Part shown: piece after piece, positions 1,942 through 22,840 of the stretch
How positions within the stretch are numbered: the first letter of the stretch is position 1
Layout: each line of letters starts with the position of its first letter
Origin: an uncultured Chloroflexia bacterium
Lineage (GTDB): Bacteria > Chloroflexota > Dehalococcoidia > DSTF01 > WHTK01
DNA: 64,000 nucleotides
Direction of reading: 5' to 3'
NCBI GenBank assembly: GCA_963703905.1
Contig: CAVPFY010000006.1
Span: 34,918-98,917 of the forward strand
Program-made: the position numbers and the translations under genes
The notes under the pieces: model-generated
The model's input: only the letters and a program-made list of their open reading frames with translations
Told to the model about the DNA's origin: nothing
Databases searched by the model: none

Positions 1942-3922
1942 TCAGTCAGCCTCAGTTGACGCAGACTGGCTCGACCATCGCTCATCGTCATCGATCACCA
2001 GCCACGCCAGCAGCGCCACCGCGCCGAACAGGATCGACGAGCGCGTACAGCCCCACCATGCCGGTCTGCAGCCGGCGCGCCTGCGTGCCGACCCAGCCGG
2101 TCGACGCCGGCCAGCGCCGTTGACCGCGCCGTCGATGCCGCGCTGGTCGAACGGCGCCGGCGAACCAGCCGGACAGCGCCCGCAGCGGCTCGACGACGAC
2201 CTTGTTGTAGGCCTCGTCGACGTAGTACTTGTTCTCGACCAGCGTGGCGAACCAGCCCAGCGACTGCGCGCACGCGCTTCGGCAGCGTCGGTGTCCACGA
2301 CGTAGGCCCGGTAGGCCAGGTACGCGCCGCCGAGCGCGACCAGCGCCGACAGCGCCAGCAGCACCCACTCGATGGGCTAGCGCTGGCGTCCGCAGTTCGG
2401 ACGCGCTGTCCGCGGTGCGGCCTGCGAAGACCGGCTCCAGCCAGTGCTCGATCAGCGAGAGGCGCGGCACGCCGAGGTAGCCGGCCAGCGCCGCGCCGAT
2501 CGCCAGGATGATCAGCGGGACGGTCATGACGCGCGGCGACTCGTGCGCGTGGCTGAACAGCTTCTTGTCCCGCTCCTGCCCCCAGAACGGCACGAACACC
2601 GCCCGGAAGGAGTAGATCGCGGTCAGGACCGCAGTGATCGAAGCCGACGAGCCACAACAGCAGCGGCGACTTCAGCCAGGCGTAACCAGAGGATTTCATC
2701 CTTGCTGAAGAAGCCGGAGAGGAGCGGGATGCCTGCCAGCGCGGCCGCGCCGATCAGGAAGGTCCAGTAGGTCGTCGGCATCTTCGCGCGCAGGTTGCCC
2801 ATCTTGCGGATGTCCAGCTCGCCGTGCAGCGCGTGCATCACGCTGCCGGCGCCCAGGAACAAGCAGCGCCTTGAAGAAGGCGTGCGTCATCAGGTGGAAG
2901 ATGCCCGCGCCATAGGCGCCCACGCCCACGGCCAGGAACATGAAGCCGAGCTGCGAGATGGTGGAATAGGCCAGGATGCGCTTGAGGTCGGTCTGCGTCA
3001 GCGCGATGGTCGCGGCAAAGAGCGCGGTCGACCACGCCGATCGACCGCCACCCAGATGCCCGCTGGTCGGCGCCAGGCCGAAGAGCACGGCCGGAGCGGG
3101 CGATCATGTAGACGCCGGCGGTCACCATGGTCGCGGCATGGATCAGGGCCGAGACCGGGGTGGGGCCTTCCATCGCGTCGGGCAGCCAGACGAAGAGCGG
3201 GATCTGCGCGCTCTTGCCGGTGGCCGCCAGCAGCATCAGCAGGGTCACGGCGATCGGCGACGCGCGCTGCCCACGGCCCACGGCCTGCGGCGCCGTCGCG
3301 AAGACCTCGGTGAATTGCAGCGTGCCCAGGCTCGTCCAGATGAACATGATCGCCAGCAGCCAGGCCGAAGTCGCCGATGCGGTTGACGAGGAATGCCTTC
3401 TTGCCGGCATCCGCCGCCGAGGGCTTCTCGAACCAGAAGCCGATCAGCAGGTAGGAAGCCAGGCCGACGCCTTCCCAGCCGACGTAACAGCAGCAGGTAG
3501 TTGTTGGCCAGCACCAGCGTCAGCATCATCAGGATGAAGAAGTTCAGGTAGGCGAAGAAGCGCGGGTAGCGCGCGTCGTCGTGCATGTAGCCGACGGAGT
3601 AGACGTGGATCAGGAAGCCGATGCCGGTGACGACCAGCGCCATGGTGATGGAGAGCTGGTCGATCAGCAGCGCGATGTCGACCTGGAAGTCTGCCGGCGA
3701 TCATCCACTGACCACAGCACGACCTCGTGGCTGCGCTCCTCGGCGGGCAGGCCCAGCATGCTGGACGAACATCGCCGACCGCCACGCGCGAAGCTCAGCA
3801 GCACCATCGCCGGCGCCAGCAAGCCGACGACGCGCCGGCCCAGCCGCGTGCCGAAGAAGGCGATGATCAGCGAGTCCCCAGCGCGGGGAACAACAAGCAT
3901 CAACCAGGCAGTAATCAAGCAT
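1942..3922 (-). CDS. nuoL: NADH-quinone oxidoreductase subunit L (operon 1; frameshifted)
   Basis: [95 protein letters not shown]. Confidence 0.95.
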
Positions 3923-14312: not shown

Positions 14313-14669
14313 GTGCTTTCGCAGTACGCATTCATCGGCATCTTTGCTGTTATTGCCCTTGCTTTACCCATCATCGGCCTGGCCATTGCCTGGCTGCTTC
14401 GCCCCAAGAAGCCCAATCCCGCCAAGAACGCCACCTACGAATGCGGCATGGAGACCATCGGTGACACCTGGGTGCAGTTCAAGGCCCAGTACTATCTGTA
14501 TGCCTTGATCTTCGTGGTGTTCGACGTCGAGGCGATCTTCATCTTCCCCTGGGCTGTCGCCTACAACAAGCTCGGGCTGCTACGCCCTGGTCGAGATGGT
14601 GCTCTTCGTGGCCATCCTGTTCGGCGGCCTGCTGTACGCCTGGCGCAAGGGCGCCCTGGAGTGGCGTGA
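14313..14669 (+). CDS. nuoA: NADH-quinone oxidoreductase subunit A (operon 2)
   Basis: [42 protein letters not shown] (last part after a frameshift). Confidence 0.95.
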
Positions 14670-14705: not shown

Positions 14706-15900
14706 GTGACGATTAGCAATACGTGCGCAACTTCTTCGTCAATCTCGCTCAGCTCCTGGACCGCCTGGCTCAGCGGCTTGCTGCCGCCGTGGGCCGTCGA
14801 CCTGGTGAACTTCCTCATCGTCGGCGATCATCCTGGTGATGATGCCGGTCATCGCCACGCTGACGCTGACCTGGATGGAGCGCAAGGTCATCGGCCGCAT
14901 CCAGAACCGCATCGGGCCGAACCGGGTCGGGCCGTGGGGCATCTTCCAGGCGATCGCCGACGCCGTCAAGATGTTGATCAAGGAAGACATCGTCCCCGAC
15001 AACGCCGACAAGCCGGTCTTCAACCTGGCGCCGATCCTGATCTGCGGCGGCGGCCGCGCTGCTGTGGGCGGTCATCCCGTTCGGCCGCAACATGATCGGC
15101 CAGGATCTGAACATCGGCGTGCTCTACCTGATCGCCATCGGCTCGATCACCACCGTCGCCGTCCTGATGGCCGGCTGGTCCTCCAACAACAAGTTCGCCC
15201 TGATCGGCGCGTTCCGCGTGGTGGCGCAACTGCTCAGCTACGAAATCCCCATGGTGCTCTCCATCGCCGCCGTGGTGCTGCTGGTCGGCACCATGCGCAT
15301 GGGCGCAGATCGTCGAGGCCGCAGATCGTGCCCTTCATCCTGGTCTTGCCCGCGGCCTTCATCGTCTACATGCTGCGCCGCGATCGCCGAGACGGGCCGC
15401 GCGCCCTTCGACCTGCTGGAAGCCGACTCCGAGATCGTGGCCGGCTACTTCATCGAGTACAGCGGCCTGAAGTTCGGCTGGTTCTACATCGCCGAGTACG
15501 GCAACCTGTTGGCCGTCTCGGCCATCGCCACCACGCTGTTCCTGGGCGGCTGGCGCGGCCCGTTCGTGTGCAGCTGCGCCGGCTCTCGGGCCGTTCTACT
15601 TCATCGCCAAGACGATCGCTGGTCGTCTTCCTGCTGATGTGGATTCGCGGCACCTGGCCGCGTTTCCGCATCGACCAGATGCTGGGCTTCGCCTGGAAGG
15701 TGCTGGTGCCGGCATCGCTGGCGAACCTGCTGTGGGTCGCCATCGTCCTGAAGCTGCCCGTGCCCGACGGCGGTGCAGTGGCTCTTGCTTCTGGCCGGCA
15801 ACTCTGGCATCGTGCTGGCAGCGCTGACGCTGCTGGGCCGGGCGGCGAAGCGTACGCAGCAGCAGACGGTGCCGCGTACGTGCACGGCACGGGATCGTGA
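14706..15900 (+). CDS. nuoH: NADH-quinone oxidoreductase subunit H (operon 2; frameshifted)
   Basis: [96 protein letters not shown]. Confidence 0.95.
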
Positions 15901-15947: not shown

Positions 15948-16445
15948 ATGCAACAAGTCGATCTTCATCGTCCTTGCCGTGCATCACCCTGGGCGCGGCG
16001 GTGCATGGTCGTGACCTCGCGCAGAACCTGTTGCGCAGCGCGCTGTGGCTGATCCTGGCCTTCTTCGGCATCGCGGGCATCTTCGTCTTGCTGCAACGCC
16101 GAGTTCCTGGCGGTGGTGCAGGTGCTGATCTACATCGGCGCCATCTCCATGCTGATCATCTTTGCGATCATGCTCAGCCGCAGCGTCATGGACCCCAGCA
16201 GCCGCGCTTCAACGAGCAGTGGGGCATCGTCGGCGGGTTCGCAGCGCTGCTCTTCGTGGCGCTGGCTGCCGTTGTGACGCGCGTCGCCTGGCCGGTCGGC
16301 ACCGGCCGTGCCGCCCGCGGACGCCATCCAGCGCCTTGGCGCCGCACTTCGTCGGCCCCTACGTGGTGCCGTTCGAGGTCGCGTCGGTGCTGCTGGTCGT
16401 GGCGCATGATCGGCGCGATCATCATCGCACGGGAGCGGGAGATAG
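15948..16445 (+). CDS. nuoJ: NADH-quinone oxidoreductase subunit J (operon 2; frameshifted)
   Basis: [47 protein letters not shown]. Confidence 0.9.
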
Positions 16446-16455
16446 GAGCGTACGC

Positions 16456-16774
16456 ATGGTTCCACTCGACCTGGTATCCTTGTTCCTGGTCTGCCGCCGC
16501 GCTGTTCTGCATCGGCGCTGTTCGGCGCGTTGGCGCGGCGCAACGCCGTCGGCGTGCTGATGGGCATCGAGCTGATGCTGAACGCCGTCAACATCAACCT
16601 GGTCGCCTTCTGGCGCTACACGGACGCGCTGCGCAGCTGACCGGCCAGGTGTTTGCCGTCTTCGTCATCACCGTGGCAGCCGCCGAGGCCGCCGTCGGCC
16701 TGGCGCTGATCATCGCCATCTACCGGCAGCGCAACACGGTCAACGTCGAAGAACTGGACATGATGAAGGGATAG
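16456..16774 (+). CDS. nuoK: NADH-quinone oxidoreductase subunit K (operon 2; frameshifted)
   Basis: [50 protein letters not shown]. Confidence 0.93.
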
Positions 16775-16809
16775 AGCGCGCATAAGCGGACGTCACGTAT
16801 CGTACTCGA

Positions 16810-19115
16810 ATGCCGATCTTCAATCTCGACTCTGGCTCTGCCGCCCGTCTCCTGCCGTTTGCCTGGCCGTTCGTCGCTGATCGTGCTGTGGGCGCAACCG
16901 CAGCAAGAAGCTGAGCGCGGGCCTGGCGATCGGCGGCATCGGCCTGTCCTGGATCATCGGTTGGGCGATCGCCTTCACCACCTTCCGGGCTCGAGGGCTT
17001 CGGCCGAGGACCCTTTCCGGCTGTTCCGCGATTGGCTGCCCACCGGGCAGCACCTGGCAGGCGTTCGGCTTCGCGGTCGATCCGCTGACCGCGCTGATGC
17101 TGTTCATGGTGCCGTTCGTCTGCTTCCTGATCTTCGTCTACGCCGTCGGCTACATGGGGGTCGGCAAGCCGCTGGGCGCGCACGACGAGCGCGGCAGGCC
17201 GGCCGAGCCGGGGCACGTCGACCCGCTGGCCAGCCGCTTCTTCGCCTACATCGCGCTCTTCGCCACCGGCATGCTCGGCCTGATCCTCTCCGACAACCTG
17301 ATCATGCTGTTGATCTTCTGGGAGATCATGGGCCTGTGCTCCTACCTGCTGATCGGCTTCTGGTTCGCGCGCAAGTACGACGACCCGAAGAAGATCACTC
17401 CCAAGGAGGCCGGGCTGAAGGCCTTCCTGACCACGCGCATCGGCGACACGATCATGCTGGCGGGCATCCTGCTGCTGTACATCCAGACCGGCTCGCTGAG
17501 CTTCGCGGAGATCTTCAAGCCGGAGACGCTGGAGCAGCTTGGCGACGACGACGACCAACCTGCCGCTCCTCGGCCCGGTGCCGTGGGCCACGCTGATCGC
17601 GCATCCTGATCTTCTGCGGCGCCATCGGCAAGAGCGCGCAGTTCCCGCTGCACGTCTGGCTGCCCGACGCGATGGAAGGCCCGACCCCGGTCTCGGCGCT
17701 GATCCACGCGGCGACCATGGTGTCGGCCGGCGTCTACCTGATCATCCGCACCTATCCCGCTGATGGCCGGCGGTCCGAACACGGGCCGGCGCTTGCAGCT
17801 TCATCGCCTTCATCGGCGCGTTCACGGCGCTCTTCGCCGCCACCATCGCGCTGGCGCAGAACGACATCAAGAAGGTGCTGGCCTACTCGACCATCTCCCA
17901 GCTCGGCTTCATGTTCGCCGCGCTGGGCATCGGCGCCTACGTGGCGGCCATCTTCCACCTGCTGACCCACGCCTTCTTCAAGGCGCTGCTGTTCCTCGGC
18001 TCCGGCAGCGTGATCCACGGGATGGAGCACGGCCATCACGAGGCGGCACGCGGACACGGGACGCGGGAGCATGCGGACACGGAGCACGCCGTCACACGAT
18101 CACGCAGTCCGGAACCGGCCATCCGCAATCGTTCGATCCCCAAGACATGCGCAACATGGGCGGCCTGCTCCGCAAGATGCCGCGCACGGCCTGGACCTTC
18201 ATCATCGGCGGGCTGGCGCTGAGCCGGCTTCCCCATCGTCACCGCCGGCTTCTGGAGCAAGGACGAGATCCTGGCCGACGCCTGGGTCAACGGCCACACG
18301 CTCGTCTTCGTCGCGCTGGCGCTGGCCGCGCTGCTGACCGCGTTCTACACCGCCCGCCAGATCGTGATGACCTTCTTCGGCAAGCCGCGCACCGCCGCGG
18401 CCGAACACGCCAGCGAGCACGACAGCATCTTCGCTGGATGACCATCCCGCTGATGGTGCTGGCGGTCTTCGCCGTTGCGCTGCGGCTGGGTCGGCATCCC
18501 GACGACCTTCCCGGTCCTGGGCAGCTCTCTCCGACCAATCCGTTCCACCATTACATCGGCAGCCTGGCCGAGGCGCTGCACATCGAGGCCGCCGAGCTGC
18601 CCTTCAACGCGGTGCCGCTGCTGGACTTCGCTGGTCGTGGCGCTGGGCGGCTTGCTGCTGGGCTGGCTGGTCTATCGCGGCGTCTCAGCGCATCGGCATG
18701 CAGGCCGACGATCCCGCCTGGTCGCCGTTGCAGATCGTCGATCCGCTGGCGAGCCGCTGGGCCGCGTCTACAGGGTGCTGCAGAACAAGTACTACTTCGA
18801 TGAGCTGTACGCCAAAGTGTTCGTCAAGGGCACGCAGCGGCTGTCCAACTGGCTCTACCGCTTCGACGACTTGTGGGTCATCGATCCCATCGTGGATGGC
18901 GTGGGCAAGCTGTGGCGCCGGCATCTCCGAGATCGGCCAGCTGGTTCGACACGCACGTCGTGGACGCGCGCCGTGAACGGCATCGGCGCCGTCACCAGGC
19001 TGGTTCGGCGGCGCCGTCCGCGTGATCCAGACCGGCAAGGTGCAGAACTATCTGCTGGTCGGTGCTGGTGACCGTTTCGGTGCTGCTGGGCGCGTTCCTG
19101 TTGCTGCCGAAGTAA
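16810..19115 (+). CDS. nuoL: NADH-quinone oxidoreductase subunit L (operon 2; long form with insertions; frameshifted)
   Basis: [89 protein letters not shown]. Confidence 0.95.
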
Positions 19116-19179
19116 GTCGGCGATGCGTCATGGTTCGCTCATTGTCGGCATCCGCTGATTCCCATCGGAGGGACGCTTC

Positions 19180-20775
19180 ATGAATAGCTCACTTCTGACC
19201 CTCATCATCTTCATTCCCTTGGTCGGCGCCATCCTGACGCTGCTGCCCTGGGGCAAGTGGCTGAAGCTGGGACAAGGCGCGCGAGGAACGGCTCATCAAG
19301 AATGGCGCCATCGTCATCAGCCTGCTCCCGCTGGTCCTGTCGATCTTGCTGTGGTTCGGCTACAACACGGCCGCCGGCGGGTTCCAGTTCCAGGTCAATG
19401 TGCCGTGGATCCCGGCGCTGAATGTCAACTACCACATGGGCGTGGACGGGCTGAGCGTGCCGCTGGTCTTCCTGACCACGTTCCTGACCACACTGGGCCT
19501 CTGCTATTCGGCGCAGGACGATCAAGGTCCGGGTGCGGGAGTTCTTCTTCCTGTTCCTGCTGCTCGAAATGGGCATGCTCGGCGTCTTCGTCTCGCTCGA
19601 TCTGGTCTTGTTCTACGTCTTCTGGGAGATCGGCCTGGTGCCCGATGTATTTCCTGATCGGCATCTGGGGCCAGCCGAAGGACCGCCCGCAGTACTCGGC
19701 CATCAAGTTCTTCCTCTACACCCTGGCCGGCTCGGTGTTCATGCTGCTGGCGATCCTCGGCATCTACTTCACGACCGGCACCTTCGACATCGTCGAGGCT
19801 GCGCAGGCTGCAGCCGTTCGCCGGCAACTTCGTGCTGTCCAGCCTGGCCTTCTGGGCCTTCTTCATCGCCTTCGCCATCAAGGTGCCGAGCTGGCCGTTC
19901 CACACCTGGCTGCCCGACGCCCACACCGCCGCGCCGACGGCCGGCTCCGTGATCCTGGCCGGCGTCCTGCTGAAGCTGGGCGCCTACGGCATCCTGCGCA
20001 TCTGCCTGCCGATCTTCCCGGACACGTTCAAGGCGCTACGCGCCTGGTCATCGTGGCGCTGGGCGTGATCTCGATCATCTACGGCGCGCTGGTGTCGCTG
20101 GCCCAGTGGGACCTGAAGCGGCTGATCGCCTACTCGTCGGTCAGCCACATGGGCTACGTCCTGCTGGGCGTGGGCGCGGCGGCGCTCGCCGATCGGCGCA
20201 GCCGAGCTGGGTCGATGCCAGCACGATGGCGCTCGAACGGCGCGGCGCTGCAGATGTTCAACCACGGCATCAGCACCGGCGCCCTGTTCTTCCTGGTCGG
20301 CGTGATCTACGAGCGGGCGCACCTGCGCGATCTGAAGATGTTCGGCGGGTTGAGCAGCAAGCTGCCCTACTACTACGGCCTGTTTGCGGTGACGGCCTTC
20401 ACCTCGCTGGGCCTGCCCGGCCTGGCCGGCTTCTGGGGCGAGTTCTTCGTCTTCCGGGGCGCGTTCGACATCGTGCCGGTCTGGGCGGTCGATCGGCATC
20501 ATCGGCATCGTGCTGACCGCGGCCTACATCCTCTGGAAGATCATCCAGTACGTCTTCCTGGGCCAGTACGATCCGCACAAGATCGAGCACTGGACCGATG
20601 TCGAGACCGGCGCCGAGTGCACACGAGCCGACGCGACGTGGTCGCTATCGAGAAGGTCACGCTGTGGCCGCTGGTCTTCTTCATGGTCTTGCTCGGCATC
20701 TTCCCGACGCCTGCTGTTGAGCTTCTTCAACACCGACGTTTCGTGGCGCTGATGAGCGGCTTCGCCGGTAAGTGA
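19180..20775 (+). CDS. nuoM: NADH-quinone oxidoreductase subunit M (operon 2; frameshifted)
   Basis: [65 protein letters not shown]; the key Glu and Lys residues are retained. Confidence 0.95.
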
Positions 20776-20803
20776 GACGGAACTGGACTGGAGCTGGACG
20801 CCT

Positions 20804-22326
20804 ATGATACTCGAGCTGATCTCGGTCTTATCTGCTAGCCCGGAGATCTGATCCTGCTGCTGACACGCGCGGCGCTGGTGTTCGGCCGCTGGACCTCATC
20901 TGGCCGCGCGAGGCGTCAGCCGGCGAACGGTCTGGCTGCCCTACGTGGCGCTGGCCGGCCTGGGCGCTGGCGGCGCTGGGCTTGATCCCGGCGTCGCATG
21001 CGCCGCAGCACGGGCGACGCGCAGGTCGCGTCGACGATGCTGGCCGTCGATCCGTTCGCGCTCTTCTTCAAGGCCCTGGCGATCATCGGCGTGGCCATCG
21101 TCATCCTGACCGCGATCCCCTATCATGCGCGGCCGCACGCCCTATCCGCGGCGAGTTCTACGCGCTTCCTGCTGATCGCCGGCCTGGCGATCTGCCTGGC
21201 CGTGAGCGCCGACCAACCTGATGATGATCTATCTGGCATGGAGTTCCTCAGCATCACCAGCTACATGCTGGCCGGTTACCTCCGGGAGGACCGCAAGTCG
21301 GGCGAGGCGGCGATCAAGTACTTCCTGTACGGCGCGACCGCCTCGGCGGTGATGCTCTACGGCATGTCGCTGCTGTACGGCGCGACCGGCACGACCGATC
21401 TGGCGGGCATCGCGCAGGCGCTGAGCGGCAAGGCCGCACGGCGAGCTGCTCTGGCTGGCGCATCCCGGCGATCATCCTGCTGCTGGCCGGCTTCGGCTTC
21501 AAGGCCAGCCTGGTGCCGTTCCACCAGTGGGCGCCCGACACCTACGAAGGCGCGCCGACCCCGGTCACCGCGTTCCTGTCCACGGCGTCCAAGGCCACCG
21601 GCTTCGCCATCCTGATGCGCGTCTTCATGGTCGCCCTGGGCTCGTGCGCAGGCGCAGTGGACGGCGCTTGCTGGTCGCCGTGTCGATCCTCACGATGACG
21701 CTGGGCAACCTGACCGCCCTGCGGCAGACGAACATCAAGCGCCTGCTGGCCTATTCGTCCATCGCCCAGGCCGGCTACATCCTGATCGGCGTGGCCGCGG
21801 TGCTCGCCGACTCCGACAGCGCCTTCACCGGCATCAACGGCGTGCTGATCTACCTGTTCGCCTACCTGTTCACGAACCTCGGCGCCTTCGCGGTGGTGAT
21901 CGCGATCGAGAACTGCCACGGGCAAGTACCGAGCTCAAGGACTACGCCGGGCTGATCCGGCGCGCGCCCTGGCTGGCCGCGCTGCTGCTCATCTTCCTGC
22001 TCTCGCTGGCCGGCATCCCGCCGACGGCCGGCTTCATGGGCAAGTTCTTCGTCTTCGGCGCCGCGGTGCAGAGCCAGATGTGGGTCCTGGTGGCGATCGC
22101 GGCCGTCAACAGCGTGATCGCCGCGTTCTACTACTTGAACGTCGTGCGCTACATGTTCTTCATGCCCGCCGAGGCGGACGCACCGATCCATGCGGGTGGC
22201 GGCGCCTCTGACGGGGCGCCATCGTGTTGACTGCCGTTGTCACGCTGCTGGTGGGCCTGTGGCCGTCACCTGCTGATTCGACTGGGCGAGCGATTCGGCG
22301 CAGAGCTTGCTGTTGTTCCTGAGGTG
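20804..22326 (+). CDS. nuoN: NADH-quinone oxidoreductase subunit N (operon 2; frameshifted)
   Basis: [84 protein letters not shown]. Confidence 0.93.
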
Positions 22327-22337
22327 AGGATGCGAAT

Positions 22338-22840
22338 GTGACGCAGAGCCAGAATCACTCCGAGAACATCATCGTCGCAAGCATCGCACGGAGAACCGGC
22401 TGCGCGTCTGGAGCCGCGAGGTACCGGAACTGATCTGGCTGGCGGTCGCGCTCGTGGGGCTTCCTGCTGCTGAGCTGTCTATCCCAGGGCGCGGCATGCT
22501 CTATTGGATACGGCGCGCCGGCACGGCCGAGACCGCCATCCCTGCTGCGCGTAACCTGCAGGAGCGGCTACTCGCTGCGATAGCGGTCGCTCGGCGGCTC
22601 AGATCGTCGGCGCTTCTGCTGCTCTTTCTCGGCCTGGCTATGCCATCGTGTATCGTCTGCGGTGGCGGCTGATGCATTCGCCCGTCGCTGACTGACGTGC
22701 ATTGCCTTCGCTGCGGCGGCGAGATCCATCGGGTGCACCGCCACTTGCCGGATCGTATCATCAACTGGTTCGTACCGGTGCGCCGCTATCGCTGCTCTGA
22801 CAAGGACTGCCGCTGGGAGGGGGTGCGCGTCTCCGCGTAG
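22338..22840 (+). CDS. Hypothetical membrane protein with C-terminal Cys4 Zn-ribbon-like domain (reconstructed across frameshifts; not in the ORF track as one ORF)
   Basis: GTG 11 nt after the nuoN stop with a GAGG SD; two hydrophobic stretches; clean C-terminal frame VHCLRCGGEIHRVHRHLPDRIINWFVPVRRYRCSDKDCRWEGVRVSA* (22697-22840). Confidence 0.55.

Follow-up and report, generated by a model that had tools for sequence, protein, structure and literature searches.

According to PMC6606698 and PMC9040806, the 2M complex I described by Chadwick, Hemp, Fischer and Orphan in 2018 has a NuoL lateral helix about 26 residues longer than usual, and PMC7117926 gives the Chloroflexota 2M form as a nuoL-M-M-N operon with nuoB-CD-I located elsewhere. 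Yu et al. (2022, mBio) reported helix insertions in the NuoL of Complex_I_1 and Complex_I_2 of Ca. Manganitrophaceae, besides the five-pump Complex_I_3, and left open whether the insertions in the former two accommodate extra pumps or mark a transition (PMC9040806). A mismatch between helix length and nuoM number was already noted by these authors; the present work names a lineage that carries it. Experiments with E. coli NuoL helix mutants (Belevich et al. 2011) indicated that the helix tolerates many changes, and that inserting 6-7 residues between NuoL and NuoM lowers pumping efficiency (PMC3274701); the length and register of the helix therefore matter.

The DNA analysed here ("the window") is a stretch of 64,000 nucleotides from a genome (G000) whose assembly is very noisy (3.9 Mb in 8 contigs, with an estimated completeness of 60%). 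An earlier note on this DNA had claimed that the NuoL encoded by a membrane-only operon, NuoL2, carries a 26-residue tandem duplication in its lateral helix while the operon has only one nuoM. It had proposed that the extended helix may recruit a fourth antiporter subunit in trans, for example NuoM1 of the neighbouring operon, to give a hybrid enzyme or, alternatively, that it is a relic of a lost second nuoM.

Two divergent operons and a single nuoM

A tblastn search of the window with genes from L013, a homologous contig free of such errors, revealed two divergent complex I operons, one complete and one confined to membrane subunits. Their components are as follows.

Extending past the start of the window, minus strand: complete complex I operon, A1-B-C-D-EF-G-H1-..-K1-L1-M1 (tblastn with L013 genes).
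14313 to about 22326, plus strand: membrane-only operon A-H-J-K-L-M-N, nuoA2 to nuoN2 (tblastn with L013 genes).
14313..14667, plus strand: nuoA2, first gene of the membrane-only operon (tblastn with L013 NuoA, 79-86% identity, one frame change).
14827..15900, plus strand: nuoH2 (tblastn with L013 NuoH; PF00146 matches at G000:C6:49744-50658).
15974..16441, plus strand: nuoJ2 (tblastn with L013 NuoJ, match at G000:C6:50891-51358).
16493..16774, plus strand: nuoK2 (tblastn; the frame ends with VEELDMMKG and a stop at 16774).
About 16790..19115, plus strand: nuoL2, about 760 aa with many indel errors, a member of the long-helix NuoL family (three-frame reading).
19180..20775, plus strand: nuoM2, with no second nuoM in the operon; it belongs to the first-position M type and not to the M2 paralogue (tblastn with L013 NuoM; placement of the relatives' M).
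20804..22326, plus strand: nuoN2 (tblastn with L013 NuoN, 67-95% identity in four frame pieces).

Indel errors occur about once per 50-150 nt across window positions 16790-22326 and likely throughout the window. The apparent 531-aa "ORF" at 19180-20775 reflects a frame 1 that is open by chance; the true nuoM2 frame runs 1-2-3-1 via hidden indels.

The single nuoM of the earlier note is borne out: one such gene (19180-20775) lies between nuoL2 and nuoN2, with gaps of 64 nt (L2-M2) and 28 nt (M2-N2), and clean relatives show the same L-M-N adjacency. The second nuoM between nuoL and nuoN by which 2M operons are recognised is absent from this operon. That note had also suggested looking for an orphan nuoM elsewhere in the genome. 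The PF00361 search of G000 was run and found no orphan antiporter gene, all 33 matches falling within four L-M-N triples. The 850-nt gap between L and M in locus L018 was considered as a possible pump remnant and discarded; it contains an unrelated 204-aa ORF (L018:10432-11046). Several Anaerolineae do carry a weak orphan PF00361 gene, located in an uncharacterised membrane cluster that has no counterpart in G000. In G041 (L097:2191-5912; counterparts in G043 and G052-G055) this cluster comprises three membrane genes, encoding proteins of 565 aa, 217 aa and 483 aa, the last of which is a divergent PF00361 protein. The adjoining 719-aa gene is one that we take, by eye only, for an aldehyde:ferredoxin oxidoreductase.

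In the noisy assembly of G000, four NuoH and four L-M-N arms were found, against only three each of NuoD and NuoB, among which there is no spare set. Complex I genes occupy C1:546-556 kb, C1:623 kb, C3:68-80 kb and C6:34-57 kb, and one NuoB is isolated at C1:622917-623843, a long way from the A-D-H-J-K-L-M-N cluster to which it belongs. The arrangement of a membrane-only operon diverging from a complete one recurs in L013, L014, L019 and L036, and a separate fused nuoCD is present in the relatives G041, G052 and G053. In this assembly no Q module belongs to the membrane-only operon, which presumably makes use of the peripheral arm encoded by the divergent complete operon.

Downstream, a Mur ligase gene follows the nuoN2 region. 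Positions 22338-22840, after nuoN2, encode a small protein that has TM helices, a tail of the form C-x2-C...C-x4-C and no Pfam match; counterparts were found only in L013, L014, L017, L018 and L019, at 28-50% identity. The possibility that a lengthened NuoH provides the docking site was weighed and set aside: NuoH2 (388 aa) aligns like Thermus Nqo8, has short end extensions and is not unusual.

A duplicated unit in the lateral helix of NuoL2

To read the helix region through its errors, window positions 18760-19118 were aligned with four clean homologous loci (L013, L017, L018 and L019). The alignment located five surplus single bases, near 18922, 18939, 18967, 18997 and 19063. All five errors in 18780-19115 are thus insertions, and their removal yields one open frame in which 18787-19115 reads as three consecutive segments of 26 aa (HL-a, unit 1 and unit 2) followed by 29 aa.

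18787..18864, plus strand: HL-a (KYYFDELY...WLYRF, 26 aa), a segment that all NuoL share (matched in alignments to solved NuoL/NdhF chains).
18865..18944, plus strand: extra unit 1, 26 residues (78 nt plus 2 inserted error bases).
18945..19024, plus strand: unit 2, corresponding to the one unit that ordinary NuoL possess (78 nt and 2 error bases).
19025..19115, plus strand: IQTG turn, anchor helix TM16 and TAA stop at 19113-19115 (frame reading; AF2 model of the homologue P0043).
2054..2233, minus strand: lateral helix of nuoL1, of ordinary one-unit length, the internal comparator (NKYYVDEAY...RRLQTG, spacing about 55).

The KYY-to-QTG spacing in NuoL2 is 79 residues, against about 55 in NuoL1 of the window, 53 in the NuoL of contig C3 and 53-54 in ten NuoL from related genomes; the NuoL of contig C1 likewise has one unit. 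When the profiles of the two units are compared, positions 5-25 of one fall on positions 5-25 of the other, in register (P = 3e-5), and both units of the homologue P0002 align to one and the same single unit of solved NdhF/NuoL chains. These data establish the tandem duplication in the NuoL2 lateral helix. The extra unit was found in none of the solved structures, every NuoL/NdhF/ND5 chain either skipping it or taking both units on one. At the DNA level, the two units have no degree of identity pointing to recent copying.

The duplication claimed in the earlier note is therefore upheld by both the spacing and the in-register profiles, and its reading of 80 nt as 26 codons plus 2 error bases is exact, two surplus bases lying between the two D-G-x-V-x-G units. 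Its flanking counts need correction: about 28 residues, not 31, precede IDP after KYY, and fifteen, not 22, lie between VDGAVNG and QTG. In length and position the insertion matches the mark cited for 2M complex I in PMC6606698 and PMC9040806.

In an alignment of 72 family members, unit 1 has a column identity of 0.54, compared with 0.51 in unit 2 and 0.58 in HL-a, and contains invariant Asp residues. Its hydrophobic moment (0.53) is the strongest of the helix segments and is reached by 0.85% of shuffles. The hydrophobic face rotates by about 170 degrees at the junction between HL-a and unit 1. A break at this junction is therefore likely, and the single straight helix drawn by AF2 is doubtful. 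The AF2 monomer model, built for P0043 with the family alignment (overall pLDDT 86), has one helix at residues 630-705 (pLDDT 65-81), a break at 706-711 at the QTG turn and a further helix, TM16, at 712-732. Foldseek comparison of this model with NuoL/NdhF/ND5 chains gave TM-scores of 0.78-0.84 normalised to the target, at 31-38% identity. The rmsd was 13-16 Å for most chains and 4.5-5 Å, over shorter alignments, for two partial maps, namely a membrane-tip map and an ND4/ND5 focus refinement. This pattern would fit a matching core combined with a strap that does not superpose.

The NuoL core itself is recognisable by PF00662 and PF00361 on the homologues, PF00361 in the window and the order TM15-lateral helix-TM16. 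A His-rich loop insertion (HGMEHGHHE...) lies at about 18000-18130, between conserved core helices of NuoL2; it occurs family-wide and is variable.

Distribution and history of the long helix

A search of 5.8 billion proteins returned thousands of NuoL2 relatives, of which the best 120 were inspected. These are mostly Chloroflexota NuoL, the listed full-length members measuring about 700-777 aa; the closest homologues listed, P0001 and P0002, are 83% and 80% identical to NuoL2 over its C-terminal 304 residues. Among the best 120, all 96 homologues with a complete C-terminus have a spacing of 79-80 residues. Measured from KYY to the last residue before IQTG, the length is 78-79 residues in 71 of 72 aligned family members, and it is fixed down to members at about 58% identity. 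A search of 40 relatives from the same genus, family and order yielded no close orthologue of NuoL2; all NuoL found there are ordinary and 35-48% identical, so that the operon is atypical for the family of the organism.

The gene context of the long helix was surveyed by scanning one genome per species for the helix region. This gave 80 loci, picked by likeness to the long helix, whose ORFs were assigned to types using BLAST and a tree that comprised all M/N-like ORFs. Full-length two-unit NuoL occurs in 34 operons with L-M-N and 16 with L-M-M-N in named genomes, a ratio that is not an unbiased frequency, the loci having been selected by their helix. The helix has the same length in both classes. 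Single-M long-helix operons occur in Anaerolineae and Caldilineae and also in records named Symbiobacterium, Ignavibacteria, Zixibacteria, Cytophagia, Poribacteria, Armatimonadetes and Ca. Fervidifonticultor; in these seven non-Chloroflexota groups, every sampled long-helix operon is single-M. Two operon forms occur: A-B-C-D-H-I-J-K-L-M-N, which lacks E, F and G, and the membrane-only A-H-J-K-L-M-(M)-N. Three units are found in L030 and L038, and four near-identical 27-residue units (spacing 134) beside a single nuoM in L034:2892-5129 and L047:8279-10528. Unit number thus varies among close relatives, unmatched to the number of pump genes.

A NuoL tree was built by a quick method with the helix columns removed and few ordinary NuoL as outgroup. 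All long-helix NuoL stand apart from the relatives' ordinary NuoL, and the non-Chloroflexota branches are all single-M. A 2M clade of 24 rows (support 99) lies inside Chloroflexota. NuoL2 falls in a 13-row single-M clade, its nearest neighbours being L018 (84% identity), L014, L017, L013 and L019. The second-position NuoM of Chloroflexota 2M operons form one clade on a long stem (support 100). For both M and N, the trees place the window's relatives within single-M Chloroflexota clades, apart from the M and N of 2M operons. The frame-broken M and N of the window were themselves placed via relatives that are 55-95% identical (L013, L014 and L017-L019); on this basis the locus combines two units, a spacing within 78-81, the order L-M-N and M and N of single-M clades, the traits of a long-helix, single-nuoM lineage. 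By sequence and gene order, it is an ordinary member of that widespread lineage. As far as these trees reach, a single nuoM is established as the ancestral state of the window's clade, and the long helix predates the M2 paralogue and has a wider distribution.

One locus, L089, does record a recent loss of M2: its M and N are nested in 2M clades, and its spacing of 81 residues is unchanged. In the N tree (L031-L094), the NuoN of 2M Chloroflexota group with those of Ignavibacteria and Zixibacteria and not with single-M Chloroflexota NuoN; in the same operons, NuoL and the first NuoM are Chloroflexota-like. This hints that M2 and N may have been gained as a module, or that N evolved fast beside M2.

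Possible roles of the extra unit

The account that we consider probable is that of a long-helix, three-segment NuoL lineage for which a single nuoM is ancestral, working in a three-pump arm that is held by a longer clamp. In this lineage three 26-residue segments, rather than two, make up the lateral helix that joins TM15 to TM16, the extra one having arisen by in-register tandem duplication of a (F/I)D-x3-(V/I)D-x-x-V-(D/N)-G-x-G unit. One nuoM would be the usual and ancestral gene set of the lineage, and the Chloroflexota 2M form, adding a distinct M2 paralogue, would have appeared later on the long-helix background. The window operon would then be complete, and the extension not left over from a lost nuoM. 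As part of the same account, the extra unit is probably kept under selection, as an amphipathic surface helix adding about 39 Å. We suppose that the helix acts as the usual strap holding the membrane arm together, and would speculate that, in three-pump arms, the extra 39 Å most likely lets TM16 dock one module nearer the quinone end, across the NuoK/J/A bundle, without requiring a fourth pump. Against a three-pump clamp, the strict period of 26-27 residues corresponds to the width that has been argued for a single antiporter subunit and fits a fourth module equally, and the four-unit, single-nuoM loci L034 and L047 are not explicable by a straight strap. These four-unit relatives fit neither the three-pump nor the four-pump simple picture.

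The lateral helix could instead be a ruler, with one 26-residue unit per module. NuoM2 would fill two positions (L-M-M-N), or NuoM1 would be borrowed, and three genes would supply four pumps as in 2M complex I, with a fifth proton per cycle; NuoM would take more positions in the three- and four-unit variants, and 2M would be the later, gene-duplicated form. We know of no case in which one nuoM product occupies two positions. Several observations are in keeping with a ruler. The helix length is constant within one residue across the family and equal in 2M and single-M operons; the long helix is wider in distribution than M2, as expected if gene duplication later turned a homomeric double occupancy into two separate subunits; unit number takes the values 2, 3 and 4 among close relatives; and an extra unit of 26 residues, about 39 Å, is what is said, in PMC9040806 and PMC6606698, to accommodate the extra NuoM in 2M. 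However, four units with one nuoM would imply six pumps, by our own estimate energetically implausible for forward electron transfer from NADH or ferredoxin to menaquinone. We hold a ruler to be unlikely, though not negligible.

Borrowing of NuoM in particular finds little room. In G052 and in G053, NuoH, a fused NuoCD and a long-helix L-M-N set were each found once, and the single-M long-helix enzyme appears to be their only complex I, with the proviso that these are MAGs and may be incomplete. As there is no second complex I in G052 and G053 to lend a NuoM, borrowing cannot be general. Both carry one divergent orphan antiporter-like gene of a kind absent from G000; G041, a complete chromosome, has two L-M-N sets, and its separate fused nuoCD serves the membrane-only operon. 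As for a special hybrid assembled from two operons at this locus, nothing suggests it: the earlier note had itself named many single-M relatives of equal helix length as the finding that would tell against its proposal, and such relatives are what the survey returned.

Docking of a partner other than an antiporter, either the small membrane protein encoded after nuoN2 (TM plus Cys4) or a neighbouring respiratory complex, strikes us as improbable. In its favour, the extra unit 1 is conserved and strongly amphipathic. In the window, as in the five relatives closest to it, nuoN is followed by the conserved small gene, with identities of 28% to the window copy and 33-50% to those of L014 and L017-L019. 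Yet this gene is confined to the nearest clade while the long helix extends to many phyla, and long-helix operons have no extra gene in common.

A relic, in which an ancestor had the M2 paralogue and lost it, the helix being not yet shortened, is more doubtful again. L089 demonstrates that M2 can be lost with the 81-residue spacing retained, and the window's clade is near the 2M clade in the L tree. However, that clade does not have the pattern of L089, which makes a relic of nuoM loss unlikely: in all three trees (L, M and N) it lies inside single-M lineages, with M and N separate from those of 2M operons. Moreover, outgroup phyla combine the long helix with a single M, and unit 1 is conserved like the rest of the helix, whose length is fixed down to about 58% identity. 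Lastly, an artefact of a noisy long-read assembly, whether a duplicated 78-nt unit or a dropped nuoM, has next to no probability in spite of five inserted bases in 336 nt and a completeness of 60%, the same spacing in 96 of 96 independent homologues excluding an assembly duplication of the 26-codon unit, clean assemblies showing the L-M-N adjacency, and the units lacking the DNA-level identity of a recent copy.

The locus itself is one of many; the question for complex I bioenergetics is raised by the class, in which operons with only three pump genes conserve, across many phyla, a helix whose length would suffice for four pump modules. Whether helix length reports pump number bears on the H+/e- ratios used in metabolic models of Chloroflexota and others. 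Should the helix indeed be a ruler, many bacteria would build a four-pump complex I from three pump genes. In practice, the 26-residue insertion is not usable as a genomic marker of 2M without counting nuoM.

Comparison with described complexes places NuoL2 as follows. It resembles 2M complex I in a lengthening of about 26 residues at the same place, and the NuoL of sampled 2M Chloroflexota operons are its close kin; its operon may also share the split layout described for Chloroflexota 2M, a membrane-subunit operon apart from nuoB-CD-I (PMC7117926). The window differs from 2M complex I in that a second NuoM is absent from both operon and genome, and in that M and N are of the single-M type. 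The Ca. Manganitrophaceae complexes share a NuoL with a helix insertion and differ in phylum (Nitrospirota). The E. coli mutants carry small engineered insertions that break register, whereas NuoL2 carries a natural duplication of a whole unit. With solved NuoL, Nqo12, NdhF and ND5 chains (such as 3rko, 4he8, 6hum and 8qby), NuoL2 has in common the fold and the TM15-helix-TM16 order; those chains have one unit where NuoL2 has two, and NuoL2 has in addition loop insertions, including the His-rich one.
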